DNA of 64,000 bases from Nitrospirota bacterium. Its GTDB lineage: Bacteria > Nitrospirota > Thermodesulfovibrionia > Thermodesulfovibrionales > UBA1546. Positions 6,242-61,611 of this stretch are shown piece after piece. Made by a program: the position numbers and the translations under genes. Location: contig JACQXE010000037.1 of NCBI GenBank assembly GCA_016208915.1, forward strand, positions 4,905 through 68,904, in the 5' to 3' direction. Numbering within the stretch: the stretch's first letter is position 1; each line of letters opens with the position of its first letter. The notes below the pieces were generated by a model that searched no databases, was not told where the DNA came from, and saw nothing but the letters and a program-made list of their open reading frames with translations.

Positions 6242-6667
6242 CTATTCCAGTATTTCTTCTATAACAGGTTTTGACTCTGTTTTTTTAGAAGCAGTCATGC
6301 TCCAGATTTTTATGACTAAAAAAGCTATCAGGAATGCGCCAAAACCGAATATGGCTGATATTATATCGGGGTCCATGTCTTTGAACTGACTGCTGAACAC
6401 CTCTTTGCCTATTATTGCGCCTGTAATGAGCGCTAAGGCAGGTATGCCATAAACAATTATAGAACCGCTCAAATATGTATAGGTTTTTACGATTACTTTC
6501 ACCCTCTGCCCTACCTTTGCCTTTGCCTTGTTGATTGCCTCTATCTCCATTGACTGTTCATCAGGCTTGCAGGTGCCTGCTGTGCACCCCTCGCAGACAC
6601 TCTTCCTCGGCACGGAGACCTTAGCAATCATCCCTTCTATGCTTTTTACTACCCCTACCTCCTCCAT
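6242..6667 (-). CDS. RseC/MucC (SoxR-reducing system) family membrane protein
   Basis: 141 aa. N-terminal Cys cluster (CEGCTAGTC) followed by two TM helices, the typical RseC architecture. Confidence 0.65.
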   Translation of the reverse strand: MEEVGVVKSIEGMIAKVSVPRKSVCEGCTAGTCKPDEQSMEIEAINKAKAKVGQRVKVIVKTYTYLSGSIIVYGIPALALITGAIIGKEVFSSQFKDMDPDIISAIFGFGAFLIAFLVIKIWSMTASKKTESKPVIEEILE

Positions 6668-6807
6668 GATAATAGCATTTTAACATACTGAGTTTTGAAA
6701 ATGCACATTGAGTGCGCATCTTAAAATCTTTGACAACAAGATGTATTTTGTGATAGATCTTTTTGAAAATTTTAAGAAACAAGGTGGTTGAGAAATAATT
6801 GGCAGAA

Positions 6808-7995
6808 CTATACAAAACCTGCAAGGAATTTCCCTGCAGAGATGATTCTTATCCCCCTTTCAAGTTTATCGGTTTTATCCCTTTTCACTACCTGATATAC
6901 ATAAGGGATTGACAACCTGTCCTTGAAGTAAATGAGACTTGGAGATACAGCCGTATCATTAAGCTTTACTTCAGCAGCAAACCATGGCTTTCCGTTTATG
7001 GTCACAAGAAAATCAACCTCACGCTTATCCACATCCCTTAAATAGTAGAGTTCTGCTTTATATCCTTCGTAGTCTGTTACAAAATGTACATACTTCAGGA
7101 GATGTGAGGCAATAAGATTTTCAAACCGTGCAGCCTCGTCCTCAACCTCTGACCAGTCCCAGACATAAAGCTTCGGCTCTTTTTTGAGCGACCGTATTTT
7201 TTTTGTTGCATAAGGATATATCCGAAAGTGATAGTAAAAGGTTTCAAGAATATCCATCCAGTGTGTGATTGCGCGATGACTGACCTCAAGGTCTTCCCTT
7301 ATGGCATTGAGCGACAGAAGAGAGCCGACCTTTGACGGCAGTATGTCGCTCAGGAGTTTTATACTGCCTATATCCCGTATTGTCTGAACATCCAGTATGT
7401 CCTCCCTGAACATTCTTTCAATCTTCTCATTGTGCCACCGCCTGAGATGCCTTTTGTTTTGCTTGGTAACAGGCTCTGGAAACCCTCCAAATGTATCGAG
7501 CATATCAAGGGCCTCCTGATGAAAACCTGTTCCTACGGAGATTTCATTCATCACCATTGACTTGTAAGTAGCGTTTTCGATCTCGGGCAGAGTAAAGGGA
7601 TGGAGCCTGTAGTAATGATATCTTCCCTGCATGGAGTCACCACCCCTCCTATAGAGGTCAAGCCGTGCGCTGCCGGTAATTAAGAATTTATAAGCATCCT
7701 TGAGCTTGTCGTATTCCCCCTTAATAAACCCTTTCCACTGGCGGTATTTGTGTATCTCATCAAAGATAAGGAGTTCAGTATCCCCGGGCCACGACGCTGC
7801 GATAATCGCCTTTCTGTCTGCCCTGTTGTCCCAATTAAAATATGAGTGATTCTTGAAATGTGTCGCAACGAAATTACGGCAGAGTGTTGTCTTTCCGACT
7901 TGGCGCGGTCCGCCGACAAAGACCATCTTATCCTTGAGGTCATCAACGATATACAGCGTGAGGTAGCGCTTTTTCAGCATATGACCAATATACAA
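6808..7995 (-). CDS. AAA+ ATPase with a DUF4143-type C-terminal domain
   Basis: 395 aa. Walker A GPRQVGKTT, Walker B LLIFDEIH, and the typical ATPase/DUF4143 layout. Confidence 0.8.
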   Translation of the reverse strand: MYIGHMLKKRYLTLYIVDDLKDKMVFVGGPRQVGKTTLCRNFVATHFKNHSYFNWDNRADRKAIIAASWPGDTELLIFDEIHKYRQWKGFIKGEYDKLKDAYKFLITGSARLDLYRRGGDSMQGRYHYYRLHPFTLPEIENATYKSMVMNEISVGTGFHQEALDMLDTFGGFPEPVTKQNKRHLRRWHNEKIERMFREDILDVQTIRDIGSIKLLSDILPSKVGSLLSLNAIREDLEVSHRAITHWMDILETFYYHFRIYPYATKKIRSLKKEPKLYVWDWSEVEDEAARFENLIASHLLKYVHFVTDYEGYKAELYYLRDVDKREVDFLVTINGKPWFAAEVKLNDTAVSPSLIYFKDRLSIPYVYQVVKRDKTDKLERGIRIISAGKFLAGFV

Positions 7996-9463: not shown

Positions 9464-9571
9464 TGTTTTGGGATTGGCGCTTATAAAGAGTGAATTTAAA
9501 CCCGTTAAAAATGCCAAAGTCTTAGAGAAAACAAGATTTCTAACGGGTAAACAAGAAAGGAGGTGAATATC

Positions 9572-9778
9572 ATGGCAGTGGAAAAAGCAATAGGTTCTTC
9601 CAGCTTGGTAGAAGTTATTGACAGAATCCTGGATAAGGGCGTTGTGATTGATGCCTGGGTAAGGGTCTCCTTAGTTGGTATTGAAATACTCGCTATTGAG
9701 GCAAGAGTAGTTGTGGCATCAGTTGAGACCTATCTGAAATATGCTGAGGCGATTGGTTTGACTGCAACAGCAGCGTAG
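9572..9778 (+). CDS. gvpA: gas vesicle structural protein GvpA
   Basis: [63 protein letters not shown] is the canonical GvpA sequence. GGAGG lies 8 nt upstream of ATG 9572. Confidence 0.97.
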
Positions 9779-11387: not shown

Positions 11388-12302
11388 ATGATTGATGAGA
11401 TGACTACGGTATTGGAGCCGAGTCCTCTGCCAGACTTTGTGGAGACAAAGTATATCAAGGATATCACTAAGAGGGCACTTGACTATATAAAGGCAGGTTT
11501 TCCAGTCCATTTTAGAGGGGTATCCGGTTCCGGCAAGACTACGTTGGCTATGCACATAGCAAGTAAGATTAAAAGGCCGATGGTAATGATTCATGGAGAT
11601 GAAGAATTCACAACCTCTGATCTTGTAGGTGGTGAATATGGTTACAGAATCAGAAAGGTTGTAGACAGATTTATCTCACGGGTATTAAAAACAGAAGAGG
11701 ATATGGTAAAGCGCTGGGTGGATAACCGTCTGACCGTTGCCTGTAAGTATGGATTTACCTTGATATATGATGAATTTACACGTTCAAGGCCAGAGGCAAA
11801 TAATATCCTTCTTTCTATTTTACAGGAGAAGATGATGGATTTGCCGGTAGGAAGAGGCGGTGAGGAACCATATTTAAGAGTAGATCCAAATTTTACTGCT
11901 ATTTTTACATCTAATCCTGAGGAATATGCCGGTGTCCACAGGAGCCAGGATGCCTTAAGGGACAGAATGATAACCATGGACTTAGACCACTTTGACTATG
12001 ATACAGAGGTCGCAATAACTCAGGCGAAATCTAAACTTTCTAAAAAGGATTCTGAGAAAATAGTGAATATTGTAAAAGGTTTAAGAGAATCCGGGAAGTG
12101 CGAGTTTGCTCCAACTATTCGCGGATGTATTATGATTGCAAAAACCCTTAAAGTTCAGGGTATCACTCCTACAAGTGCCAATGGCGCCTTTATGCCGATT
12201 TGCCAGGATATATTGGCCTCTGAGACGAGCAGGATTGGCTCAAAGACGAATCAGAGCAGGGTAAAAGAGACAGTTAAGGAGTTGGTTGAGAAGTATAGTT
12301 AG
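11388..12302 (+). CDS. gvpN: gas vesicle protein GvpN (AAA+ ATPase)
   Basis: 304 aa. Walker A GVSGSGKTT, Walker B LIYDEF, GvpN-like length, and position after gvpA and the C-like genes. Confidence 0.85.
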   Translation: MIDEMTTVLEPSPLPDFVETKYIKDITKRALDYIKAGFPVHFRGVSGSGKTTLAMHIASKIKRPMVMIHGDEEFTTSDLVGGEYGYRIRKVVDRFISRVLKTEEDMVKRWVDNRLTVACKYGFTLIYDEFTRSRPEANNILLSILQEKMMDLPVGRGGEEPYLRVDPNFTAIFTSNPEEYAGVHRSQDALRDRMITMDLDHFDYDTEVAITQAKSKLSKKDSEKIVNIVKGLRESGKCEFAPTIRGCIMIAKTLKVQGITPTSANGAFMPICQDILASETSRIGSKTNQSRVKETVKELVEKYS

Positions 12303-12390
12303 AAAGGAGAAGACAGAAAAAAATGGGTCTTTCGTTAAAAAATTGAAAATCATAAATGGCTGGATGAATGACGGAACTGCTATTAAAAGT

Positions 12391-12465
12391 GTCATTCCCC
12401 GACTTGATCGGGGAATCCAGAAAGCAAAGTTACTGGATTCCCGCTTAATGACTGCGGGAATGACG
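12391..12465. repeat. hairpin repeat element (REP/MITE-like, GTCAT...ATGAC family, 'attcccgc' subtype)
   Basis: gtcattccccgacttgatcggggaatccag...ctggattcccgcttaatgactgcgggaatgac: two hairpins between inverted GTCAT/ATGAC ends. Track ORF 12286..12507 is just its translation. Confidence 0.8.
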
Positions 12466-12503
12466 GAAAAGAGAGTATTTTCGTATGAAAGGAGGATTGT
12501 TAA

Positions 12504-12809
12504 ATGAAAGGAATGTTGCAGATACCCGGCATTAAAGATATAAAAAGTACACATTCTGTAGGTGCACGGTCTATTCCAAAGGTACAAAGGTCAAGTTATT
12601 TAGAATTATATATGCGTAGAAGAGAGAAGGATAGATTAGAGAAAGAAATCTTCGCGTTAGATAAAAGAAGAGACACAGCGAATAGGCAATTGAACAGCAT
12701 CAATAAGCAAATTGAAAAATTACAGAAAGAAGTGCACGAAGAGCAAAAGATTAATACTTATAGAGGGATACCTACAAGGCCGCTTAAGACAATGGCTATA
12801 AATTATTAA
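12504..12809 (+). CDS. small coiled-coil protein of unknown function within the gvp island
   Basis: 101 aa. SYLELYMRRREKDRLEKEIFALDKRRDTANRQLNSINKQIEKLQKE shows a heptad-like pattern. I recognise no family. Confidence 0.5.
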   Translation: MKGMLQIPGIKDIKSTHSVGARSIPKVQRSSYLELYMRRREKDRLEKEIFALDKRRDTANRQLNSINKQIEKLQKEVHEEQKINTYRGIPTRPLKTMAINY

Positions 12810-13981: not shown

Positions 13982-14082
13982 GTCATGCCGACAATTAGGC
14001 ACAAAGGGGAATGAAAAACTGTCATTCCCGCGCAGGCGGGAATCCAGAAAGACACTGGATTCCGTGTCAAGCACGGAATGAC
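13982..14082. repeat. compound hairpin repeat element (GTCAT...ATGAC family)
   Basis: gtcatgccgacaattaggcac... followed by gtcattcccgcgcaggcgggaatccagaaagacactggattccgtgtcaagcacggaatgac. Track ORF 14011..14223 translates it. Confidence 0.8.
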
Positions 14083-17304: not shown

Positions 17305-17485
17305 AATAGCAAAGATTATTGAGAAGATTAAGAATTTCTTCAAAGGCAAAAAGAAAGAAGAGCCTAAAGCCCAACAGGAAAAACCTAAAACAGAAGAGAA
17401 GCCTGAAGAACAAAAATAGTAGAAAAGAATAAAAGGATCACTAAAAGGGGAGGGTGGATAATCCTCTCGATATAAATTTTTGATA

Positions 17486-18511
17486 ATGGCTGAAATAGAA
17501 GGTATATATATCTACGGTATTGTTGATACTGCAGGAGAGAAAAGTCTCGGCATTGCTGGAATCACTGCGTATGGAGAGGTCTATACAATTCCACATCAGG
17601 ATATTTCTGCGGTTGTAAGTGATTCACAATTTGTAGATTACACCGCTCTTTCTAAGGATCGAGTTGCAAGATATCTTCTTGCTCACCAGCAGGCAATAGA
17701 GAAGATTATGGATTCTCATACCATTATTCCTGTGAAGCTCGGCACTTATGCCTTTAATATCAGAGAGGTAGAGGAGATTTTATCAAAGGGATACACAATG
17801 TTTAAAGATGTATTCAGGACGATCAATAACAAGATTGAGATTGATGTGGTAGCAACATGGAACGATTTGAATTCAGTAATTAAAGAGATCGGCGAAGACG
17901 AAAAGATTAAAGAGCTTAAAGAAAAGCTGATGTCTAAGCCTGAAGGTATATCTCTTGAAGACCAAATGAAGATAGGCAGTCTCATTAAGGATATTTTATA
18001 TATAAAGAGAGAAAAACTTGCCTCTGAAATAGGGACTGTATTAAGAAAGGTGAGTATAGATTCAAGGGCACATGGTCTTATGGATGACAGGATGATCTTT
18101 AATGCCGCCCTTCTTATAGATAAGGATAAAAGGGCTGAATTAGAGAAAGGATTAGATGAGATGAATGGGTTGTACAATGAAAAAATAGATTTTAAATGTG
18201 TTGGCCCTTTACCTCCATATAGTTTTTACACTGTAGAGGTTAAGAAGATCCCTTTTGGTGAGATAGATTGGGCAAAAGAAAAATTGGGCATTGATAACAT
18301 ACCAACAAAGGAAGATATCATAAAAGCATACCGCAGCAAAGCCAACTTATATCATCCAGATAAGAACAGAGGCGCTTCGGATGCAGACAGGCAATTTAAT
18401 GAAGTATTCAGGGCGTACAAAATCCTCCTTGAATACTGTCAAGAAGAAACTTGTTCATTTGATGAAAAAGAGTTCGGTCAAGATGCCATCATTGTAAAGA
18501 TAAGAGATTAA
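17486..18511 (+). CDS. GvpF/GvpL family protein fused to a C-terminal J-domain (DnaJ-like, HPD motif)
   Basis: N-terminus IYIYGIVD...ISAVVSD...HQQAIEKIMDSHTIIPVKLGT...FNAALLIDK...GPLPPYSF matches GvpL/F. C-terminus TKEDIIKAYRSKANLYHPDKNRGASDADRQFNEVFRAYKILLEY is a J-domain. Confidence 0.85.
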   Translation: MAEIEGIYIYGIVDTAGEKSLGIAGITAYGEVYTIPHQDISAVVSDSQFVDYTALSKDRVARYLLAHQQAIEKIMDSHTIIPVKLGTYAFNIREVEEILSKGYTMFKDVFRTINNKIEIDVVATWNDLNSVIKEIGEDEKIKELKEKLMSKPEGISLEDQMKIGSLIKDILYIKREKLASEIGTVLRKVSIDSRAHGLMDDRMIFNAALLIDKDKRAELEKGLDEMNGLYNEKIDFKCVGPLPPYSFYTVEVKKIPFGEIDWAKEKLGIDNIPTKEDIIKAYRSKANLYHPDKNRGASDADRQFNEVFRAYKILLEYCQEETCSFDEKEFGQDAIIVKIRD

Positions 18512-19283: not shown

Positions 19284-19790
19284 ATGTTATCAGGGACAGA
19301 AGCAGATATTATAAATACTGTTGCCAGATTAAAAGAGGCAACCAAGGACCAACTAAGAAAAGAGGTAGGTTTTTCTTCAGATTATATTAGCTATTTATGT
19401 GGATATTTGGTCAGAAAAGGTTATCTAAATTTTTCTGATGGGCATTATTCTCTGGCAAGGATGGAAATAAAGACTTTGCGGAGAGAAGATACACAGATCG
19501 ACAGGGAGTTAATCAAAGAGATTGCCAATGAGGTTGCTGGAGAGCTCAGTGGTAAGTTAAGAAAAACAGTAAAAGAGATAAAAATACCGGTTGCACAGAT
19601 AAGGCAGAAAGCAAAACAGATACCAGAAGAAAAAATAAATCCCGATTTTGAATTTCCTGTAGAGGATGAAAGTTTAGCCTTAGAAAGTAATATCAATAAA
19701 ATAGGGCCAAACTTAGAAAAAGAGAAATCTAACATTGACAGGTTAGTGAAATTATTTAAAAAAATTCAAAAGAGATGGAGGAAAAGATGA
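19284..19790 (+). CDS. winged-helix (MarR/TrmB-like) N-terminal domain protein, putative regulator
   Basis: EADIINTVARLKEATKDQLRKEVGFSSDYISYLCGYLVRKGYL is wHTH-like. The C-terminal half is charged. Confidence 0.5.
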   Translation: MLSGTEADIINTVARLKEATKDQLRKEVGFSSDYISYLCGYLVRKGYLNFSDGHYSLARMEIKTLRREDTQIDRELIKEIANEVAGELSGKLRKTVKEIKIPVAQIRQKAKQIPEEKINPDFEFPVEDESLALESNINKIGPNLEKEKSNIDRLVKLFKKIQKRWRKR

Positions 19791-20881
19791 ACAATGGGAA
19801 TGAAGAAAAGGAGACAAAGGACATTAAAGGACAAAAAGGTAAGGGAGTTGATATAGGGACAGTATTTGTAAAGTGTGCGTACACAGATAGTGATGAAGTC
19901 ATATTCAAGTCGCAGCGAAACGCCTTCTTTGAAGTAGAATATGCAGGTTTTACTATTACTAAGAAGATATTCGATGACCGTGGAATAAAATATGTTATAA
20001 AAGACGATAAACTTTATGTTGTAGGCAATGATACATTACAATTTGCCAATATATTTAATAAAGAGACAAGAAGGCCCCTAAGTAATGGTGTGATTAGTTC
20101 AACAGAAAAAGAGGCCCTTCCTATAGTAGAACTATTGATAAAGAGCGTGGTGGGTGAGCCTGCTGTCAAAGATGAGATAGTCTACTTTTCCGTCCCGGGT
20201 GAGCCTCTGGATGCAGATTTTAATATCATATATCATATAAAGACCCTTGAAGGATTCCTAAAGACTCTCGGTTATACCCCAAAGCCGATAAATGAAGCCC
20301 TGGCGGTTATATTATCCGAGTTAGCCGATAAAGACTTTACCGGAATCGGCATTTCTTTTGGTGGCGGGATGGTCAATGTCTGCCTGAGTTTTATGTCTGT
20401 GCCCATTTTTAAGTTTTCGGTTATCAGGGCAGGTGACTGGATAGACCAGCAGGTCGCTATGGCAGTGGATGAGGCAGCCACCCGTGTATCAGCGATAAAG
20501 GAATTCTCTCTTAATTTGAGTAGGGAAAAAGAATTAGGCAAGATAGAAAACGCCCTCTCCATATATTACAATGACCTCATTGGGTATGTAATTGAACATA
20601 TAAAGCAGGAGCTTGATAAGGCAGGGGGAGGGCCTGCTATGGCTAAGCCTGTAACTATTGTCCTATCTGGAGGTACTTCACTTCCCAAGGGTTTTGCCCA
20701 TAGGTTTAAACAGATTTTGGATCATTTGAAATTCCCTATTCCAGTTGGCGAGGTAAGGATGGCAGCACAACCTTTAAGTTCGGTAGCTAAGGGAGCATTG
20801 ATTGCTGCAAGGTCAGAAGGGGATAATAGTCAAACATCTGCTTCTAATAGGGCAAATGGAAGCATCCTTGAAAGAAGGTAA
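19775..20881 (+). CDS. actin/Hsp70-fold (ASKHA superfamily) ATPase, MreB/ParM-like size
   Basis: Phosphate-1 GVDIGTVFVK, phosphate-2 GIGISFGGGMVNV, and adenosine motif IVLSGGTSLPKGF. 368 aa. Confidence 0.7.
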   Translation: MEEKMNNGNEEKETKDIKGQKGKGVDIGTVFVKCAYTDSDEVIFKSQRNAFFEVEYAGFTITKKIFDDRGIKYVIKDDKLYVVGNDTLQFANIFNKETRRPLSNGVISSTEKEALPIVELLIKSVVGEPAVKDEIVYFSVPGEPLDADFNIIYHIKTLEGFLKTLGYTPKPINEALAVILSELADKDFTGIGISFGGGMVNVCLSFMSVPIFKFSVIRAGDWIDQQVAMAVDEAATRVSAIKEFSLNLSREKELGKIENALSIYYNDLIGYVIEHIKQELDKAGGGPAMAKPVTIVLSGGTSLPKGFAHRFKQILDHLKFPIPVGEVRMAAQPLSSVAKGALIAARSEGDNSQTSASNRANGSILERR

Positions 20882-22128: not shown

Positions 22129-23033
22129 TGTCGGCTCATGAGAAGGTGACGGGGATGAGGGAAAAATTAATATATGTTTATTGTGTTAGTCACAAAGAAC
22201 CGAATTTTAAAGATTCAGATTTAGGTAACTCCCACACCAAAATTTTTGGTGTGAGGGTTTACCCTATTTGCCACCAGGACCTTTATGCTGTGGTTAGTAA
22301 GGTTTCAGAGGATGAATTTACTGAGGAAAACTTAAAGAAGAATTTGTCCGATATGAAGTGGGTAGAGTCTAATGTCTTGAGGCATGAGGAAGTAATTGAA
22401 GAGATAATGAGAGATTGCACTGTTATTCCGTTTAAATTCGCCACTATTTTTAAGACAGAGGAAAATGTAAAGGCTTTGCTTGAAGAACACACCGAGGAAT
22501 TTAAAAAAAGTCTTGAGGGATTAGAAGGCAAAGAAGAATGGGGCATTAAGGTGTATTGTAATATTGATATTCTAAAGACAAATCTTATAAAGGAAAATGA
22601 GGAAATAAAAAGGATGGAGCAGGATATTAAATTGTCTTCTGCTGGCAAGGCTTATTTATTAATGAAAAAGAGGGATGGGTTAATAGAAAGTATTCTAAAT
22701 AAGAAAATCAATGAGTATGGTCAGGATATTTTTGAAGAACTTAATGCACTAAGCAGAGATACACGCATCAATAAACTATTGCCGAAAGAAGTAACTGAGC
22801 AAAAAGATGAGATGATCCTGAATGCTGCCTTTTTGATTGATACATGCAAAATCATAGTGTTTATTGATACTGCAATTTTTCTAAAGGAAAAATATAAAGA
22901 TAAGGGGCTCAACCTTAATTGCACAGGTCCCTGGCCCCCTTATAATTTCTGTTCGATAAACCCCATTAGTAGTGGGAGAGATTCAAATCTGTTTGAGACT
23001 CCTAAGGGGGTAAAGAAGGAAAAGGCAATATGA
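22125..23033 (+). CDS. GvpL/GvpF family gas vesicle protein
   Basis: LIYVYCV...LYAVVSKV...HEEVIEEIMRDCTVIPFKFAT...LNAAFLID...GPWPPYNF. Confidence 0.8.
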   Translation: MMSAHEKVTGMREKLIYVYCVSHKEPNFKDSDLGNSHTKIFGVRVYPICHQDLYAVVSKVSEDEFTEENLKKNLSDMKWVESNVLRHEEVIEEIMRDCTVIPFKFATIFKTEENVKALLEEHTEEFKKSLEGLEGKEEWGIKVYCNIDILKTNLIKENEEIKRMEQDIKLSSAGKAYLLMKKRDGLIESILNKKINEYGQDIFEELNALSRDTRINKLLPKEVTEQKDEMILNAAFLIDTCKIIVFIDTAIFLKEKYKDKGLNLNCTGPWPPYNFCSINPISSGRDSNLFETPKGVKKEKAI

Positions 23034-23710
23034 GCAGTGTTGTCCTGGAATCTAAGAATATAACCTTAGTAGAAACCCTAGACAGGGTGCTAAATAAAGG
23101 GGTAATTCTGAGCGGAGATATTACAATTTCTGTTGCTGATGTGGATTTAATCTTTGTAGGGTTGAAGGTATTACTTGCCTCTGTCGAGACAGCCGAGAAA
23201 ATGCGTTTAGGATATAAAAATGATAGGTGGAATGGGAAAAATGGCGAAACGAAGAATGAAAATACATCACCCTCCCCTCTATCCCCTCCCGTCAAGGGAG
23301 GGGAGTTTATGAGAGGCCCCTCTCCCTTGGCGGTCGCCTCATTCTCCTCAGCGAACCCGCCTGAGTGCGGGGGCGACTCGTCGAGGAGAGGAGAGGGCAA
23401 GGGTGAGGGGAGATTTTCGGAGCAACCCAAAGAGATAAAGGCAGTTCTCCCGAGAATTGATGCCGAGCCAGAAAAGGTTGAGCAAGGGCTATCAAAATTA
23501 GTATTAACTCTTATAGACTTGCTCAGAAAACTTATGGAGAAACAGGCTATAAGAAGAATAGACGGGGGTTCTCTTTCTGACAACGAGGTAGAAAAGCTTG
23601 GATATACGTTTATGAGATTAGAAAATAAGATGGAAGAGTTAAAAAAGGTATTTGGGCTTAAGGATGAAGACCTGAACTTAAACTTAGGTCCCTTAGGGGA
23701 TTTGATGTGA
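23030..23710 (+). CDS. fusion ORF: GvpA-like (GvpS/J/M-type) N-domain, then a GC-rich repeat-derived linker, then a GvpK-like C-domain
   Basis: N-domain: LVETLDRVLNKGVILSGDITISVADVDLIFVGLKVLLASVETAEKM. C-domain: EKVEQGLSKLVLTLIDLLRKLMEKQAIRRIDGGSLSDNEVEKLG...DLNLNLGPLGDL, the GvpK signature. I found no ATG/GTG/TTG in frame just upstream of the K part. Confidence 0.75.
   Translation: MSSVVLESKNITLVETLDRVLNKGVILSGDITISVADVDLIFVGLKVLLASVETAEKMRLGYKNDRWNGKNGETKNENTSPSPLSPPVKGGEFMRGPSPLAVASFSSANPPECGGDSSRRGEGKGEGRFSEQPKEIKAVLPRIDAEPEKVEQGLSKLVLTLIDLLRKLMEKQAIRRIDGGSLSDNEVEKLGYTFMRLENKMEELKKVFGLKDEDLNLNLGPLGDLM
23266..23414. repeat. GC-rich nested-palindrome repeat block inserted in frame inside the GvpA-like/GvpK ORF
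   Basis: tcaccctcccctctatcccctcccgtcaagggagggg...cccgcctgagtgcggg...gagggcaagggtgaggggag. It contrasts sharply with the AT-rich flanks and translates to SPSPLSPPVKGGE...GEGKGEG. Confidence 0.75.
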
Positions 23711-23742
23711 TGACAGAAAGAATAAAATAAGGAGAAAACATT

Positions 23743-24048
23743 ATGGCTGAACAACAGCTGGCGCATGCTATACAGGCGACTAATTTGGCTGACATCTTAG
23801 AGCGGGTACTGGATAAGGGAATCGTTATTGCCGGGGATATCAAGATAAGCCTGGCTGATGTTGAACTTCTGAATATCAAGATAAGACTTTTGATTGCCTC
23901 GGTTGATAAGGCTATGGAGATGGGCATCAATTGGTGGCAGCAGGATCCTTATTTATCTACAAAGGCAAGAGAAGCTGAAATAGAAAAAGAGAACGCATCT
24001 CTAAAAAAGAGATTAGAACGTTTGGAAGCAAAGATAAAGGCGAAATAA
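23743..24048 (+). CDS. gvpJ: gas vesicle protein GvpJ (GvpA family)
   Basis: LADILERVLDKGIVIAGDIKISLADVELLNIKIRLLIASVDKAMEMGINWWQQDP. Confidence 0.85.
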   Translation: MAEQQLAHAIQATNLADILERVLDKGIVIAGDIKISLADVELLNIKIRLLIASVDKAMEMGINWWQQDPYLSTKAREAEIEKENASLKKRLERLEAKIKAK

Positions 24049-31697: not shown

Positions 31698-32132
31698 ATG
31701 AAGAATATCTTTAGCTGGCAGGTTTTATTAGGGTTATTGCTGATTGCGCTCTCTTCAATATTATATCTGATACATTATGCGCTCTTCAGAGATGCGCACC
31801 ACATATTTCTTTATCTGGTAGGGGATATAGCCTTTATTCCTATTGAGGTGCTGCTGGTTACACTGGTTATCCACAGGCTCTTAAATGAGAGAGAAAAGCA
31901 GGCTATGCTTAAGAAGATGAATATGGTTATAGGCGCCTTTTTCAGTGAGATCGGCAACACTCTCCTTAAATCCCTTTCTGTCTTTGATACACAGCCTGAC
32001 AATATCAGGAAAGAACTGATTTTAAGCAATCAATGGACTGACAAGGACTTCATGAATATCAGCAGGCGTATTAAGGGTTACAACTGCAGTCTTGACAGCA
32101 GGAGAGGCGCTCTCGAAGACTTAGGGATTTAA
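31698..32132 (+). CDS. membrane protein fragment (its stop codon is supplied by the RAYT-element inverted repeat; probably truncated)
   Basis: 144 aa with two N-terminal TM helices. The TAA at 32130-32132 lies inside the left 21-bp inverted repeat. Confidence 0.4.
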   Translation: MKNIFSWQVLLGLLLIALSSILYLIHYALFRDAHHIFLYLVGDIAFIPIEVLLVTLVIHRLLNEREKQAMLKKMNMVIGAFFSEIGNTLLKSLSVFDTQPDNIRKELILSNQWTDKDFMNISRRIKGYNCSLDSRRGALEDLGI

Positions 32133-32883
32133 ATAGGGACACATCCCATTATTACCCTGCTTTCTTCCTGGGTCTGCCCCGTGGTCTCAGCGCTAAGTCC
32201 CTTCCGGTTTTTCTTTCCATCCTTTTCATGAACGCTTCATCTCCAAGCGGTTTGCCTGTCCTCGTATGATAGCGTATCAAGTCCCTGTCTTTCTCTGCGC
32301 TCGTTTCTCTGATAAACTCCCTGTAATCCTTTCTCTGTGTTTCTGCAATAAGCTCCTCGTTTAAAAGGTCGTCTGGTTTCCCCATTATATGAGCCCGCGC
32401 ACTTGAGTATGCGTAGTCTTCTGCTTTTTTCACCATCCGGGCACGTACAGGGTTCGTCTCTATGTATCTTGCAACTGCCCAGAGATAGGAATCCTTATCC
32501 ACAATGCAGGAATGGTACCTGCTCTCCCATAATCTTCCTGTGCGGCTATATTTTCTGTTTGTAAATTGTGTGTAGCAAAGCGTAACTCCCTGCATCATTT
32601 TGTACAGGGAATCGTTTTCTTTGGGCTTAATCAGCAGATGCACATGGTTTGACATCAGACAATAGGCCAGTATCCGGGCATCTCTTTCCATGGAATATTT
32701 TTTCTTATGTTTAATATATTTTTCCCGGTCTTCATCGTCACTGAATACCTTTTCTCTGTTGTTTCCCCTCTGCACTACATGATGTGGAAAACCGGCTGCA
32801 ACGGCCCGTGCGATTCTTGCCATGTCGAAATTCTACCGGAGAGAGGCGGGCTTGTCAAGTAAAATAGGATGTGTCCCTATTTA
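32130..32883. mobile_element. RAYT-type transposase unit bounded by 21-bp inverted repeats
   Basis: taaatagggacacatcccatt (32130-32150) is the reverse complement of aataggatgtgtccctattta (32863-32883) at 20 of 21 positions. The repeats flank ORF 32152..32823. Confidence 0.8.
32152..32823 (-). CDS. REP-associated tyrosine transposase (RAYT) / IS200-like Y1 HUH transposase family
   Basis: PHHVVQRGNNRE..., HUH motif LMSNHVHLLIKP, and ARYIETNPVRARMV (catalytic Tyr region). Confidence 0.85.
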   Translation of the reverse strand: MARIARAVAAGFPHHVVQRGNNREKVFSDDEDREKYIKHKKKYSMERDARILAYCLMSNHVHLLIKPKENDSLYKMMQGVTLCYTQFTNRKYSRTGRLWESRYHSCIVDKDSYLWAVARYIETNPVRARMVKKAEDYAYSSARAHIMGKPDDLLNEELIAETQRKDYREFIRETSAEKDRDLIRYHTRTGKPLGDEAFMKRMERKTGRDLALRPRGRPRKKAG

Positions 32884-32908
32884 TTTATTCATTTATTTAT
32901 TTATTTAT

Positions 32909-33553
32909 CTGTCGCGTGAGGAGGTCAACGCTGTTATTCAGAACCTCTATCCGCCCTATGACCTGTTCGTGAAGACGCTCTACGGCTGCAGGCTGCGGTT
33001 GTTCGAGTGCTTGAAATTGCGGGTCCATAATTTCAACTTCGATGCCGGCGTGCTGACCATTCACGACGGTAAGGGGAAGAAAGATCGGACCGTCCCTCTG
33101 CCGAAGGTCATCATTCCGGAACTCCTTGCTCAGCTTGAGCGGGTGAAGACGCTGCATGAGAAGGACCTGTCCGTAGGATTTTCAGGCGTCTTTCTGTACC
33201 ATCTGCTCGAAAAGAAGTACAAGAACGCTGCAAAGGATCTAGTGTGGCAGTGGTTCTTCGCGCAAAAGTCGTTGACTATCGTGGAAGATACGAAGGAGCG
33301 ACGGCGTTATCATCTCAACGAGCGTGATGTCCAGAGGGCCATACGGGCAGCAGTGGGAAGGGCAAAGCTCACGAAGCGCGTCTCGTCCCACACCTTCCGC
33401 CACAGCTTTGCTACGCACCTGCTTCAGGCAAATTACGACATCCGCACGATTCAGGAACTGCTCGGGCATTCGGACGTGAGGACGATCATGATATACACTC
33501 ACTGTGTGCCGAGCAGAACTCTCAAAGAGATGAAGAGCCCGCTGGATTTTTGA
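32909..33553 (+). pseudogene. intI: integron integrase (IntI) lacking roughly its N-terminal 100 residues
   Basis: LSREEVNAVI...LYGCRLRLFECLKLRV...DGKGKKDRTVPLP...LLEKKYKNAAKDLVWQWFFAQKSL...RRRYHLNERDVQRAIRAAV...HTFRHSFATHLL...LGHSDVRTIMIYTH. It has the IntI-specific insertion and the R-K-HxxR-H-Y catalytic residues. The N-terminal domain is replaced by RAYT IR/(TTTA)n sequence. Confidence 0.8.
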
Positions 33554-43421: not shown

Positions 43422-43539
43422 GCAGGATATAGCATTTTCTCTCATTCTCGCTACGCTCCGAGGTATTTTGCCTCTTGATTATCTTATTTATACTGTCTGA
43501 ATATCGGCAAAATAATGCCGCTCAAATACCATATCCTGC
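43422..43539. repeat. 118-bp MITE-like element with ~16-bp terminal inverted repeats, copy 1
   Basis: gcaggatatagcatttt...aaataccatatcctgc. About 85 percent identical by eye to 61482..61595. Confidence 0.8.
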
Positions 43540-44013: not shown

Positions 44014-47000
44014 CTATGGAAACTCAATGATTTCTTTTTCAATATCTGGATATATACTATCTATTTTTTCCTGAATCTCTATTGTCTTTTTCAGAGCAGT
44101 AACGACCCTGCAATAATGCTCTACTTCCTCTACAGACAGTTTTCTCCCTTTTCTGTCTTTCAGCCATTTGTTGCAGACCTGATAACCACCGACCTGATAT
44201 TCCCAGATTTCCTGAGAGATACCTTCGAAATACTGTGTTTGATTGATGTAAATGCGACCAAATCCCCCCTCGCCCCCCTTTGCAAAAGGGGGGATGGGGG
44301 GATTTTCATATCTCAATTTTTCAACCTTGTCATCCCCCTTGCCCTGAAAACGTGCTATAGGCGGGTCAAGTTCTGAGGCTTTCAGGAGATGCAGTTCAAC
44401 AAGCCTTTCGCCGTAATCGGTCATTTTCTTGAAAAGCTTGTAGTCATTTGTGAATGGAATCCTCGGGAAGTCTATTTTTAGAAATTCAGCATATTTTGTC
44501 CTGTAGCTGTTTGAGTAAAGCACGGCGTAGATGTAATAAAAGATTTCTTCAGGAGACGACGCCTTCTTGAATGCCTTTGACAATTTCTCCAGCAATAAAG
44601 GAGATAGATTCGACTTTTTTATCCCATATTCTGCCTCTGGCTCAAAAAGCATCATGATGTTTGTTAGAGAACGCTTTTTAGATTTTTCTTTCCGTTCTTG
44701 GTATATGTAGAGTGGAAAATTTACATTTCCACCACGATAAAACAGATTAAAATCTTCTATGTGGTTAGAACAGAAAACAATGTTCCAGAGTTTTTCTAAG
44801 CCTACTACCTGTCCAGCTCTTCCAACACACAAACTTAAATTATCTTTTATCATATGTTGCATGACTTCTTTGCGTGAACGTTCTATGACGGCATCGTGAT
44901 AAAAAATCCACTGTTCATCAAACGGGCGATAGAGGATTTTTGTAATTGCTTGTTCCCATTCTTCATCTTTCATAATGATTTCTCTTGCATTCTTTAACTT
45001 CCAGTTGGATTTATCGTTAAGCTTATAAGTCTGTCGAATGATTTCATCGGGCATTCTTTTGTCTCTGAATTGCATTATTCTTCTTTTTAAGGCATTCCTG
45101 TCTGAATCAATCACAAAATTATCTCTCGATGTGACTATGCCAACGCTATTTACAGGAAAAATATCAGTGATTTTAGGATACGTTTCATATTGTTTTAAAA
45201 GACCTTCATCTCTTGGAATAAAAAGATAGAACTCGGATTTAGGTTTAATCGTTTTCCATTTTGTTGTCTTGATATCGTGTTTATTTAGCCAATCATATTT
45301 GTCTTCTCTTATACCCCAGAGTTCAGAATGGGAAATCTTACACCTCTCTTTTGTTGTCATGCCGGCTTGTCCGGCATCCTTCTTTAAGAAAGATTCCCGA
45401 CGAGCGGGAATGACAGAAGTACCGCCTTTTTTCTTGATAAACAGAGCAATAGCAACACCTTGCTGAATATCAAAGACGTTCTCATCCTTAGAGCCATCAG
45501 GACACTTTTCTTTTTTAAGACTGTTGCCGTGAAGGTCGAGCAGATAAATCTCGTCAAAACTCTGCATCAAAGACTGGCGCATGCCTCTGAAAGTAGGATT
45601 GTCAAGATAACTGTGGTTTGTTATAAAGCCTAAAACCCCTTCGCCTGCCTGATCAATCTTCCACTGTGCAAAACGGATAAACTTCACATAATCATCCTGA
45701 AGCCATTTTGGATTTTTCTCGCCAAGCGGTTTCCCGTCAACCTGAAAATAAGTTTTAATCTCTTTTGATATCCAGTCGCCAATGTTAGAGGAATGACCTG
45801 AGTATGGCGGATTGCCGAGTATAATAAGAATTGGCTGCTCTTTTTTAACCTTTCCAGCCAGATGCGATTCCTCTGAAAGGGAAACCATTCCGGGCAGTTC
45901 GGTCTGAGCAAGTTCTTCCATCTCAAGTGTGTTGGTTAAGTAAAGCTTGAACCTGTCGTCTGCCTGAAGTTTATAGCCAAGTTCTTCCAGAAGAAACGAC
46001 ATCTTTAAATGGCCGATTGCATAAGGCGCCATCATGAGTTCAAAGGCATAAAAATTTTTGAGAATATGCTCCTTGATAAAACCTTTTCTTTTCCCTTCAC
46101 CATATTTAGAAGTGAATTCCTCAACTGCGAGTTTTGCTGCCTCGGCAAGAAAGGTGAGCGTTCCTGCCGCAGGGTCAAGGACTGTTACCGATTGACTCGC
46201 AAAACCATCCTTTTTATCAAAGTGTTCTTTTAAAATGTGGTGCAGAGAACGGACAATGTAAGAGACAACCGGCTCTGGCGTGTAATAAACGCCTCTTTTT
46301 TCTCTTGTTTTTGGATCATATTCAGCAAGAAAGGTCTCATAAAAATGGACAACTGGATCTTTCCCTTTGTGCTTGCTGAAGTATTCATCGAGAATATTGT
46401 AAACATCGGTGGTAGCCAGAACTTCGGAAATATCGTCAATAATCCATTCCATCTGCTGGGGCAGTTCTCCCAAAGAAATGAATTTAAAAACATCCCTTAG
46501 AATTCCGATTGTCTTTGGAATCCTGTCATAAGCAAGCTTTCTGTTAAAGCCGTTTTCCGTTATGGTTCTCGCGGCGAACAGCCCATAAGTGATGGTCTGC
46601 GAATAAAGGTCTGCAAAGTCTTCTTTTGTAAGCCCGCTTATAAGGTGCTCTTTAAAGACTTTATAAAAACCGAGAATATTCCCCTTGCCCTTTTTCTCTT
46701 CTTCTTCCAGTTCCTGCGAGATTACTTCATCCTTTAAAAAACGCGTCCTCTTTGCAAGTTCTGTTGCCAGATTTTTAGCATCATAGACTTTTGGCAGGGA
46801 AAAGGAAAAGAATTTCTCAAACAGATTTAGAAACTTCTGCTCATTTTCAACAAGAGGAACGGATTTGAGTTTGTGGATATGGTACGGCCTGCCGACGAGA
46901 ACCTTATCTATCAAAACGCCGCTGCGGTAAAGTCTGAATTCAAAGAAGTTGGTCAGCAGCAAATTTGGGAAAATATTCAAATAGCGCTTTAACTGACCCG

Positions 47001-47298
47001 ATGCCTCTATCTGGTCTAAATACTCCACCCCCCTATTTCCCCCCTTATCAAGGAGGGAATAAAAGGGGGGCGCTTTGGCTTCGATATAACCGATAATCTG
47101 CTGCTTTCCGTCCCATATTCTGAAATCAGGATTTCCCGCATCTGTCTTTTTGGGCAACGTGGTGACATAAACCTGTTTTTTATTAATGGAAACAGCGTAG
47201 TTTTTCAGGAGTTCTTCAAGAGAGGAATAGTAACTTTCCTCTCTCGCATCTCCCTGTGTTGCGACATCAAAGATTCGTTGAAAATATGTTTTCAACAT
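44014..47298 (-). CDS. single-polypeptide type IIG/IIL-like restriction-modification enzyme (N-terminal PD-ExK-like nuclease, N6-adenine MTase, C-terminal specificity region)
   Basis: 1094 aa. GNPDF...GYIEAK (D..ExK), motif I VLDPAAGTLTF, motif IV GNPPYSG, and C-terminal WEYQVGGYQVCNKWLKDRKGR. It carries three in-frame repeat-derived segments. Confidence 0.8.
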   Translation of the reverse strand: MLKTYFQRIFDVATQGDAREESYYSSLEELLKNYAVSINKKQVYVTTLPKKTDAGNPDFRIWDGKQQIIGYIEAKAPPFYSLLDKGGNRGVEYLDQIEASGQLKRYLNIFPNLLLTNFFEFRLYRSGVLIDKVLVGRPYHIHKLKSVPLVENEQKFLNLFEKFFSFSLPKVYDAKNLATELAKRTRFLKDEVISQELEEEEKKGKGNILGFYKVFKEHLISGLTKEDFADLYSQTITYGLFAARTITENGFNRKLAYDRIPKTIGILRDVFKFISLGELPQQMEWIIDDISEVLATTDVYNILDEYFSKHKGKDPVVHFYETFLAEYDPKTREKRGVYYTPEPVVSYIVRSLHHILKEHFDKKDGFASQSVTVLDPAAGTLTFLAEAAKLAVEEFTSKYGEGKRKGFIKEHILKNFYAFELMMAPYAIGHLKMSFLLEELGYKLQADDRFKLYLTNTLEMEELAQTELPGMVSLSEESHLAGKVKKEQPILIILGNPPYSGHSSNIGDWISKEIKTYFQVDGKPLGEKNPKWLQDDYVKFIRFAQWKIDQAGEGVLGFITNHSYLDNPTFRGMRQSLMQSFDEIYLLDLHGNSLKKEKCPDGSKDENVFDIQQGVAIALFIKKKGGTSVIPARRESFLKKDAGQAGMTTKERCKISHSELWGIREDKYDWLNKHDIKTTKWKTIKPKSEFYLFIPRDEGLLKQYETYPKITDIFPVNSVGIVTSRDNFVIDSDRNALKRRIMQFRDKRMPDEIIRQTYKLNDKSNWKLKNAREIIMKDEEWEQAITKILYRPFDEQWIFYHDAVIERSRKEVMQHMIKDNLSLCVGRAGQVVGLEKLWNIVFCSNHIEDFNLFYRGGNVNFPLYIYQERKEKSKKRSLTNIMMLFEPEAEYGIKKSNLSPLLLEKLSKAFKKASSPEEIFYYIYAVLYSNSYRTKYAEFLKIDFPRIPFTNDYKLFKKMTDYGERLVELHLLKASELDPPIARFQGKGDDKVEKLRYENPPIPPFAKGGEGGFGRIYINQTQYFEGISQEIWEYQVGGYQVCNKWLKDRKGRKLSVEEVEHYCRVVTALKKTIEIQEKIDSIYPDIEKEIIEFP
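44260..44305. repeat. GC-rich nested palindrome inside the RM gene (translated NPPIPPFAKGGEGGFG)
   Basis: aaatcccccctcgcccccctttgcaaaaggggggatggggggattt. Confidence 0.8.
45356..45414. repeat. GTCAT...ATGAC hairpin element inside the RM gene (translated SVIPARRESFLKKDAGQAGMT)
   Basis: gtcatgccggcttgtccggcatcc...attcccgacgagcgggaatgac. Confidence 0.8.
47025..47072. repeat. GC-rich C6/G6 hairpin repeat inside the RM gene (translated APPFYSLLDKGGNRGVEY)
   Basis: ctccacccccctatttccccccttatcaaggagggaataaaaggggggcg. Confidence 0.7.
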
Positions 47299-47379: not shown

Positions 47380-47406
47380 CTGGATTCCTGCTTTCGCAGG
47401 AATGAC
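47380..47406. repeat. half copy of the GTCAT...ATGAC hairpin element
   Basis: ctggattcctgctttcgcaggaatgac. Confidence 0.7.
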
Positions 47407-47411
47407 TACTT

Positions 47412-61409: not shown

Positions 61410-61481
61410 GGATAGCGATATTTTGAGTAATATTACAGGTAAGAGTCAAGCATAAAAAAATGAATATACATTTTAATCAGA

Positions 61482-61595
61482 CAGGATATAGTATTTTCGC
61501 TCATTCTCGCTGCGCTCCGAGGTTTTTGCCTTTTGATATTTATATGAATACTGTCAGAATATCAGCAAAAAAATCCGCTCAAATACTATATCCTG
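61482..61595. repeat. MITE-like element, copy 2 of the 43422 family
   Basis: caggatatagtatttt...aaatactatatcctg. Confidence 0.8.
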
Positions 61596-61611
61596 CCTTT
61601 AATAAGCAGTT

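Follow-up and report, generated by a model that had tools for sequence, protein, structure and literature searches.

TM/BoxC palindromic repeats in the tether of a natural GvpS/J-like–GvpK fusion: probable passengers in a gas vesicle gene

Background

How does a GC-rich nest of hairpins come to lie, translated, between two domains of a gas vesicle protein, and what does it do there? The question is raised by a stretch of 64,000 nt from a Nitrospirota bacterium (assembly GCA_016208915.1, contig JACQXE010000037.1, positions 4,905 to 68,904 of the forward strand), referred to here as the window, in which one open reading frame (ORF) of 226 codons carries a GvpA/J/S-like domain, a GC-rich palindromic block and a GvpK domain. 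The original prediction for this ORF left two explanations side by side, namely that insertion of a repeat had joined two genes that were once separate or had taken the place of the region between them, or that it had entered a linker that already existed and was tolerated there as peptide. The analysis described below favours the latter: most probably, selfish hairpin repeats are passively tolerated in the disordered tether of an ancient natural GvpS/J-like–GvpK fusion. Coordinates of the features are collected in Table 1.

Results and discussion

The fusion gene and its hairpin block

As predicted, both parts belonged to a single ORF. Scores in Pfam were far above the gathering cut-off of 25 bits for PF00741 (E 2e-14, 53.9 bits) as well as for PF05121 (E 2.2e-34, 117.8 bits), and the GvpK domain of this ORF was the only one in the window. 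An AlphaFold2 model based on 86 homologues gave an alpha-beta-beta-alpha fold of moderate confidence for the N-terminal domain and a helical GvpK domain, while residues 64 to 146 between them lacked secondary structure and had predicted local distance difference test (pLDDT) values of approximately 39 to 57; the linker is thus modelled as a disordered, structurally permissive site of insertion.

The GC-rich nest of hairpins between the domains was likewise found as described. GC content of 80-nt windows within 23257–23447 rose to 0.69, the maximum of the entire 64 kb (mean 0.41), and eight inverted-repeat pairs were nested within 23270–23412. Folded as RNA, 23256–23425 formed one large nested palindrome of -90.3 kcal/mol, compared with -68.3 ± 4.8 kcal/mol for 200 dinucleotide shuffles (z -4.54); since none of the 200 folded as well, the structure exceeds what composition would give by chance. 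The block encoded the peptide SPSPLSPPVKGGEFMRGPSPLAVASFSSANPPECGGDSSRRGEGKGEG, within a linker containing segments such as GPSPLAVASFSSANPPECGGDSSR. Two of the six frames across the block were free of stop codons and the gene used one of these, in agreement with the remark that the block keeps the frame open. The accompanying claim, that there is no in-frame start just upstream of the GvpK part, stood for codons 101 to 163, which include the 41 codons ahead of the GvpK domain, but not for the block itself, where an ATG at codon 94 (23309–23311), preceded by a Shine-Dalgarno-like GGGAGGGGAGTTT, and a TTG at codon 100 were located. No terminator-like or promoter-like signal was observed on the coding strand of the block, and a search of Rfam returned no family at gathering score anywhere in the window, the block receiving chance-level matches only. 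An antisense frame of 254 aa (23002..23766, minus strand) was open over the whole fusion gene, block included, and is probably a compositional by-product.

Identity of the block

Judged by its sequence, the block (23267–23412) is an inverted pair of units of the G/C-rich intrastrand triplex motif (TM), formerly known as BoxC or PIT (Holder et al. 2015, NAR, PMC4666352). The consensus in Escherichia coli is CCCTCTCCC-loop-GGGAGAGGG-TTA-GGGTGAGGG (PMC4666352), the hairpin being defined by 6 to 15 bp with a loop of 1 to 6 nt and the third block by a mirror repeat. In unit 1, TCCCCTCCC and GGGAGGGGA paired at 9 of 9 positions around a loop of 5 nt, and the third block, AGGGGAGGG, which followed a TAG, was an exact 9-nt mirror of GGGAGGGGA. 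In unit 2, the arms CCCTCTCC (23318–23325) and GGAGAGGG (23390–23397) were exact complements, and GGGTGAGG differed from the mirror sequence GGGAGAGG by one mismatch, an A-to-T change that the E. coli consensus also has; the first loop of this unit was approximately 63 to 64 nt and as it stands falls outside the defined 1 to 6 nt, because a nested insert of 60 nt lengthens it. Without this insert, unit 2 shared 81% to 86% identity with the four E. coli TM sequences given in Table 1 of PMC4666352, and unit 1 shared 66% to 79%. Unit 2 used as a blastn query had matches in 4927 of 5426 complete E. coli genomes (80% to 95% identity, median of 8 places per genome), and among the matches listed none of eight overlapped an annotated feature. 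The insert itself was absent from the orthologous loci L001 and L007 and from every dispersed TM copy, had no second copy in about 1 Mb of fetched loci, and on its own showed no significant structure (z -0.7).

The window pair thus resembles the E. coli motif in its three-block architecture of pyrimidine arm, complementary purine arm and mirror-repeat purine block, in its sequence (77% to 86% identity to the E. coli copies), in its dispersed multi-copy occurrence across phyla, in the presence of inverted "palindromic" pairs, and in the instability of the sequence around it, here seen as turnover of linker cassettes. In E. coli K-12 there are 23 copies, some of them inverted pairs, and the motif, present in more than 260 genomes, has been tied to local genomic instability (PMC4666352). 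The K-12 copies are "always located intergenically" (PMC4666352), whereas the copy in the window lies in a coding sequence and is translated; an intergenic position has been reported for the E. coli copies but does not belong to the structural definition of the motif. The likeness is one of sequence and of computed, duplex-type folding only.

Dispersal of the repeat

The pattern CCCCTCTATCCCCTCC-N3-25-GGAGGGG was found at 120 or more loci in many phyla of a species-representative genome collection; hosts among the matches listed included Aminicenantes (at least 16 copies in one metagenome-assembled genome, MAG), Deltaproteobacteria, Nitrospirota, candidate-phyla-radiation bacteria, Cyanobacteria, Bacteroidota and Planctomycetota. 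Stretches of 38 to 39 nt of the window block were 100% identical to copies at unrelated loci, a 50-nt stretch shared 94% identity with locus L045, and the entire two-unit composite was colinear with dispersed copies outside long ORFs (L067, L092 and L045). Such a position was the rule, as 90 of the 104 copies sampled (approximately 87%) lay outside long ORFs. In the genome of the orthologue L007, a second TM copy was present at L061, in the same MAG.

The block is bounded by outer arms, GAAAAT and ATTTTC, and similar flanks were observed at other copies and at the element of the window near 44260–44307; of the hallmarks of miniature inverted-repeat transposable elements, a direct target-site duplication could not be made out. 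The flanks GAAAAT...ATTT(T)CGGAGCAA were common to the window block and the dispersed L045 copy (about 6745–6870), and ATGACGGAAAAGAG(A)GTATTTTCG was common to an intergenic element of the window (12457–12485) and the linker of L006 (4967–4990); these short shared flanks may be the ends of the elements or a sequence favoured as target. L045 was also considered as a gvp pseudogene, its flanks being like those of the gvp linker, and was rejected as such, no GvpA-family or GvpK domain being present in L010–L129.

Age of the fusion

A total of 1143 homologues were found, and the best 120 of these all carried PF00741 and PF05121 in one protein of 179 to 257 aa; the phyla among these 120 included Nitrospirota, Nitrospinota, Elusimicrobiota, Gemmatimonadota and Acidobacteriota, besides others. 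In an alignment of 25 of these both domains were conserved, the linker being entirely variable in both its length and its sequence. Of 80 metagenome loci, 28 were fused, four had a separate ORF for the N-terminal (GvpS-like) domain directly upstream of gvpK, and 48 had gvpK alone. In the unfused relatives the gvpS-like stop and the gvpK start were 1 to 4 nt apart or overlapped, as at the L131 junction (...EPT* TAA-ATG MDKP...); therefore, fusion would take no more than the removal of one stop codon or a slight shift of frame. A fused clade with linkers of 27 to 28 aa showed neither GC excess nor excess structure (fold z -1.3 to +1.7), and the linker segments on either side of the window block (GYK..NEN and FSEQ..EIKAVLP) aligned with relatives in which the block is lacking. 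Sequence comparison thus indicates that the fusion is ancestral and was not made by the repeat.

Turnover at the linker

Syntenic loci of the closest homologues were fetched for comparison, the DNA of proteins P0008 and P0009 being L210 and L211, respectively. TM units were present in the linkers of the window, L001 and L007, with unit 1 tandemly duplicated and a further hairpin added in L007. The linker of L006 had another palindromic family at the same site (GTCATCGCGAGG...TTCGCAATGAC), those of L008 and L009 contained GTCATTCC(C/T)GC...ATGAC, and GTCAT-tagged hairpins in the style of the NTS/dRS3/SRM repeats (see below) occurred in the linkers of L008, L009, L134 and L137. Linkers of P0003 to P0012 had other sequences where the window has the block, which was also absent from the short-linker fused homologues. 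When the domains alone were compared, the nearest relative was P0003 (91% identity), with a linker of the GTCAT type, while P0002, its linker of the TM family like that of the window, reached 87%; thus, the type of repeat is out of step with the phylogeny of the domains. The neighbour-joining tree of 145 domain residues was poorly resolved and was used only together with the identity matrix and the DNA comparison.

The genes for P0008 and P0009 differed at 8 positions in the first 175 nt or so over the N-terminal domain (approximately 95% identity) and at 2 of 287 nt over the C-terminal domain (more than 99% identity), and yet their linkers of about 210 nt were unrelated, with sharp boundaries; that of P0008 was like the linker of P0003, and that of P0009 like the linker of P0010. 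Because near-identical genes hold unrelated linkers, the simplest reading of these sequences would be that homologous recombination within the conserved flanks, which encode the domains, exchanged whole-linker allelic cassettes; insertion and excision as independent events are a less simple possibility.

The peptide encoded by the repeat was not conserved, since L007 reads the same DNA in another frame: unit 1 was translated as SPSPLSPPVKGGE in the window and, one frame over, as LPSIPSHRGRG in L007, after which both continued as SPL..GEG.GEG for unit 2. The ATG at codon 94 was ATA in L001 and absent from L007.

Related repeats in other genes

Outside the gvp genes, long open frames contained 10 of the 104 TM copies sampled, and five of these ORFs were confirmed by Pfam as real genes. 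The repeat was in frame between the GFO/IDH/MocA and hexapeptide-transferase domains of L069 (95–1786), between two CoA-transferase III domains of L098 (5375–7873), in the spacer of a TonB protein of L061 (3028–3816), the MAG of L007, and inside the GT4 glycosyltransferase domain of L032 (6157–7455); the fifth copy was in a Wzy_C protein of L115.

The window itself held in-frame palindromes of other families in its Type ISP gene. The 60-nt element at 45355–45414, located between the methylase and Type_ISP_C domains where alignment to the solved homologue 7LO5 was poor and gapped, was the same element, in the same reading frame (VIPA.RESF..KKDAGQAGMT), as that in the gvp linkers of P0009 and P0010 (L008). 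The CCCCCCATCCCCCC/GGGGGGCGAGGGGGG hairpin nearer the end of the gene had a near-identical dispersed copy in L045 (about 6650–6700). The statement that blocks of the same kind occur elsewhere in the window is therefore right for GC-rich palindromic repeats in general and wrong for the TM family, of which no other copy was present.

Among the intergenic elements, 14020–14047 agreed with the 28-nt NTS consensus of Neisseria at 27 of 28 positions, and the pattern for Ssn-related motifs (SRM) had two matches in the window (12390–12420 and 14020–14047) against 0.08 expected. SRM and the Neisseria NTS/dRS3 repeats are targets of GIY-YIG single-strand nucleases, and dRS3/NTS repeats have been tied to recombination and to variability of adjacent genes (PMC11893778). 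This element and the GTCAT-tagged hairpins of the orthologue linkers are similar to the Neisseria repeats. Unlike these, the block of the fusion gene is not an SRM; the strict published pattern (HGTCWY...) had no match in the block or in any orthologue linker, so that neither was accepted as a member of SRM/NTS and the resemblance of the orthologue linkers is architectural only. Nor was an ssnA-like GIY-YIG gene found in the window; an ORF of 101 aa between two NTS-like elements (12504–12809) was considered as a candidate Ssn nuclease and proved to encode a coiled-coil protein.

In behaviour, the nearest counterpart is provided by the Rickettsia palindromic elements (RPEs; Ogata et al. 2000, summarised in PMC10969869), which are in-frame insertions in many genes, and by other intragenic insertions of the MITE/ERIC type. 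As with RPEs, short selfish palindromes are present in frame in conserved genes and absent from orthologues, are translated as extra, fold-compatible peptide segments, and recur as one family in frame in unrelated genes; this applies to the TM family and also to the P0009/P0010 linker element in the Type ISP gene. The likeness is a behavioural analogy only. The elements differ from RPEs in belonging to TM/BoxC and NTS/SRM-like families; in their host, a free-living Nitrospirota lineage and not a reduced intracellular genome; in being concentrated in interdomain linkers; and in the alternation of several families at one site in near-identical genes.

Further repeats were observed in the window. 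A dispersed palindromic repeat of yet another family was present at 43423–43468 and 61482–61527 (91% identity), apparently intergenic, with arms at 61479–61505 and 61572–61598. An inverted repeat of 21 nt (32130–32150 and 32863–32883; 95% complementary, spacing 712 nt) had one arm overlapping the 5′ end of a GC-rich ORF, 32822–33553 (80-nt windows up to 0.65), whose composition suggests foreign origin.

Origin and persistence of the block

The reading that we favour may be put as follows. Two folded assembly-factor domains, encoded in unfused relatives by adjacent, translationally coupled or overlapping genes, would be linked through a disordered tether with very little constraint on its length or sequence. 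The TM pair would be passenger DNA in the tether of the window's lineage, its second unit further split by the 60-nt insert, and may have arrived by a transposition-like insertion or by repair or recombination at hairpins. Its persistence would follow from one of two stop-free frames happening to encode a flexible spacer rich in Pro, Ser and Gly, with selection keeping only the open reading frame and not the peptide. The linker would be a hot spot of turnover, other repeat families occupying the same position in close relatives. More generally, dispersed hairpin repeats may land or recombine anywhere, and the survivors would be those in intergenic DNA or, when a stop-free frame is met, in disordered linkers. 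The second explanation of the original prediction, insertion into a pre-existing linker with tolerance as peptide, is upheld by the assignment to a named dispersed repeat, the predicted disorder, the unconserved peptide and the turnover at the site.

Several observations weigh against it. In every close-clade gene for which DNA was examined (window, L001, L006, L007, L008 and L009) the linker was enriched in GC (linker/domains 0.55/0.39 in the window, 0.55/0.44 in L007, 0.50/0.40 in L006, 0.49/0.41 in L008 and 0.48/0.39 in L009), and four of these six linkers folded far beyond their shuffles (z -4.2 to -9.0), those of L006 (-2.3) and L009 (-1.9) being weaker; this recurrence could reflect selection for a hairpin instead of mere permissiveness of the site. 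No further TM-family copy was detected in the 64 kb by blastn at word size 7, by a repeat finder run on the whole window or with the motif CCCCTCYCC, dispersal in the host's own genome was seen for L007 and not for the window, of whose genome the 64 kb were searched, and neither a transposase nor a target-site duplication was identified at the block. In addition, the private 60-nt insert is known from a single MAG contig, the protein forming a cluster of one member.

The first of these points leads to the alternative that the hairpin at the tether is a selected functional element, acting in pausing or processing of the mRNA, in internal initiation at ATG94, or as a DNA recombination site that diversifies tether length. 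The version with internal initiation would yield free GvpK, besides the fusion, from ATG94 behind the Shine-Dalgarno-like GGGAGGGGA, and in the window this ATG does lie in frame, 5 nt past a GGAGGGGAG tract; the purine arm of dispersed copies is often just upstream of gene starts (e.g., L052), TM and dRS3/NTS repeats are linked to local variability and recombination (PMC4666352, PMC11893778), and the cassette swap between L210 and L211 represents real turnover. The GC-enriched linkers of all six close-clade genes, four of them strongly structured, keep this reading alive, although the hairpins derive from different repeat families. It is unlikely nonetheless. Neither sequence nor frame is conserved across orthologues, ATG94 is not retained in L001 or L007, distant fused homologues manage with unstructured linkers of 27 to 28 aa, and the block is without a terminator- or promoter-like site on the coding strand, in line with the lack of either activity in the PIT/TM motifs of E. 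coli (PMC4666352). Moreover, unrelated proteins have these repeats in their linkers as well, which is more readily explained by permissiveness than by a role confined to gas vesicles.

An assembly or binning artefact, producing the block or a part of it, especially the 60-nt insert, was also weighed. Repeat-induced mis-joins are common in short-read metagenome assemblies, dispersed repeats being a classic cause, and here the protein is a singleton with an insert lacking a second copy in the fetched loci. On the other hand, the frame is exactly preserved, 60 nt being a multiple of 3, both flanks are colinear with orthologues where a mis-join is expected to break synteny or frame, and the TM pair was assembled independently at the same site, with identical sequence, from five samples (L001–L005), and also in L007; an artefact is therefore very improbable. 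Least credible of all is that insertion of the repeat made the fusion by replacing the stop codon and spacer between gvpS/J and gvpK. The two stop-free frames of the repeat, the existence of unfused S–K neighbours and the usual intergenic position of such repeats would suit it. But fused proteins free of the repeat are widespread and phylogenetically broader than the clade that bears it; the GYK..NEN and FSEQ..EIKAVLP flanks align with block-free relatives; and, with unfused genes 1 to 4 nt apart or overlapping, there is no spacer to colonise. The orthologue comparison that had been proposed as a check found the fusion with short non-repeat linkers in relatives, many of the best 120 of 1143 homologues being of this kind, and the first explanation of the original prediction was abandoned.

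Bolder proposals go beyond tolerance: that the tether is an actively maintained hypervariable cassette site, its hairpin- or triplex-forming repeats (TM/BoxC, NTS/SRM-like) recruiting breakage, single-strand nuclease activity or recombination, or that the hairpins govern the proportion of fusion protein and free GvpK, with such repeats acting more widely as a source of linkers. We consider this improbable. If the former were true, populations would continually swap linkers and so tune the length of the tether or the coupling of S to K; if the latter, pausing or internal initiation would determine how much fusion protein is made relative to free GvpK; and in the broader form, bacterial proteins would in general gain new interdomain linkers from intergenic hairpin repeats shared across phyla.

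Table 1 Features of the fusion gene, its linker block and related repeats in the window
Feature	Position (nt)	Strand	Basis or remark
Fused gvpS/J-like–gvpK gene, ATG start, 226 aa	23030..23710	+	ORF and Pfam; NCBI MBI4684687.1 (Nitrospirae/Nitrospirota bacterium MAG)
GvpA-family domain (Gas_vesicle, PF00741), residues 12–50	23063..23179	+	Pfam
Interdomain linker, residues about 63–141	23216..23452	+	No predicted secondary structure; GC 0.55 vs 0.39 in the two domains
Outer inverted-repeat arm GAAAAT, pairs with ATTTTC at 23413–23418	23258..23263		RNA fold
TM/BoxC-type unit 1, TCCCCTCCC-TTGAC-GGGAGGGGA-TAG-AGGGGAGGG-TGA (minus-strand reading); translated SPSPLSPPVKGGE	23267..23304	-	
Spacer of 12 nt between units, holding ATG codon 94	23305..23316		
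TM/BoxC-type unit 2, left part: pyrimidine arm CCCCTCTCCC and TTG	23317..23329	+	
GC-rich insert of 60 nt (20 codons) in unit 2 loop, encoding AVASFSSANPPECGGDSSRR	23330..23389	+	Only in this window
Unit 2, right part: GGAGAGGG-CAA-GGGTGAGGGG, purine arm and mirror-repeat third block; translated GEGKGEG	23390..23412	+	
Outer inverted-repeat arm ATTTTC, partner of 23258–23263	23413..23418		
GvpK domain (PF05121), residues 142–226, complete	23453..23707	+	Pfam; AlphaFold2 three helices, pLDDT 85–96
GC-rich hairpin repeat GAAAAT-CCCCCCATCCCCCC-TTTTGCAAA-GGGGGGCGAGGGGGG-ATTT, in frame as PPIPPFAKGGEGGF	~44260–44307	-	Inside ORF 44014..47298
Palindromic 60-nt element GTCATTCCCGC...GCCGGCATGAC, in frame as VIPARRESFLKKDAGQAGMT	45355–45414	-	Inside Type ISP ORF 44014..47298
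Intergenic NTS/dRS3/SRM-like elements	12390–12464, 14020–14082, 47380–47407(-)		First two in gvp-cluster gaps

The gas vesicle cluster

The fusion gene lies in a cluster with gvpA, gvpN-like, gvpF/L, gvpG and gvpJ genes, which identify it as a gas vesicle cluster. Its members include gvpA (9551–9775), an AAA_5 ATPase gene (11388–12302), a GvpH/Hsp20-like gene, genes for ArsA- and CDC48-type ATPases, several gvpF/L genes, gvpG and a weak gvpO match; the fusion gene comes after the gvpO match and others and is followed by a gvpJ-like gene (23743–24048). Against NCBIfam, the N-terminal domain was nearest to GvpM/GvpJ and also matched the GvpA model, all below cut-off, with S, J and M as candidate subfamilies; by synteny (gvpL/F, fusion gene, gvpJ-like gene) it corresponds to GvpS of Bacillus megaterium. 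In that organism gvpK overlaps gvpS, GvpS, GvpK and GvpJ cooperate in early assembly, and engineered fusions of GvpS (all versions) and GvpK (most versions) keep gas vesicle assembly (Iburg et al. 2024, PMC11445434). The order gvpL/F, S, K, J is identical in the window, whereas S and K are here one natural polypeptide, with a tether of 74 aa, compared with 27 to 102 aa across the fused orthologues with DNA analysed. Assembly competence of the engineered GvpS and GvpK fusions, together with the cooperation of S, K and J, makes it plausible that the natural fusion functions, and the protein is presumably made and functional. Database labels for the fused protein are just "gas vesicle protein K" or "GvpJ", and no description of a natural GvpS/J–GvpK fusion was found in the literature.

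Some other traits of the cluster were observed. The conserved portion of the cluster, in the window and the orthologues, includes ATPases of the ArsA and CDC48 types, and a GvpF/L protein that ends in a DnaJ (J) domain (17480–18511, plus strand) is kept in L006, L007, L009 and L210. Two genes between two gvpF/L genes of the window cluster (19284–19790 and 19775–20881, plus strand) are a small ORF that weakly matches MarR and, after it, the gene for an actin-fold protein of the Volactin family (PF25216, E 1.3e-93); both are missing from the orthologous clusters L006, L007, L008, L009 and L210. The Volactin-family protein could be a filament system that positions gas vesicles. The lineage of P0008 and P0009 has an extra ORF of 87 aa without Pfam match between the fusion gene and gvpJ (L210, 4675–4938; L211, 1620–1883), which the window lacks.

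Conclusions

The event at this locus may be regarded as one of a known kind, the in-frame presence of a selfish palindromic repeat, for which RPEs are the closest behavioural precedent. New are the translated copies of repeat classes so far regarded as intergenic, their position in a natural GvpS–GvpK fusion, and the unusually clear turnover of cassettes from several families at one linker. BoxC/TM and NTS/dRS3-like repeats are thus translated inside real genes, preferentially in interdomain linkers, which extends the RPE phenomenon to free-living bacteria and to two repeat classes widespread across phyla; local instability, as attributed to such repeats, is cleanly illustrated in nature by the pair of near-identical genes with unrelated linkers. 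For annotation, SPSPLSPP..GGE, GEGKGEG, VIARSE..RND and VIPA.RESF..AGMT in proteins should be taken as signatures of repeat DNA and not of function. For gas vesicles, GvpS-like and GvpK proteins have been fused in nature many times or long ago, and the tethers tolerated range from 27 to about 100 residues with practically any sequence; joint action of S and K, as has been proposed, is supported by this natural fusion, which also points to a simpler layout of synthetic gvp operons.

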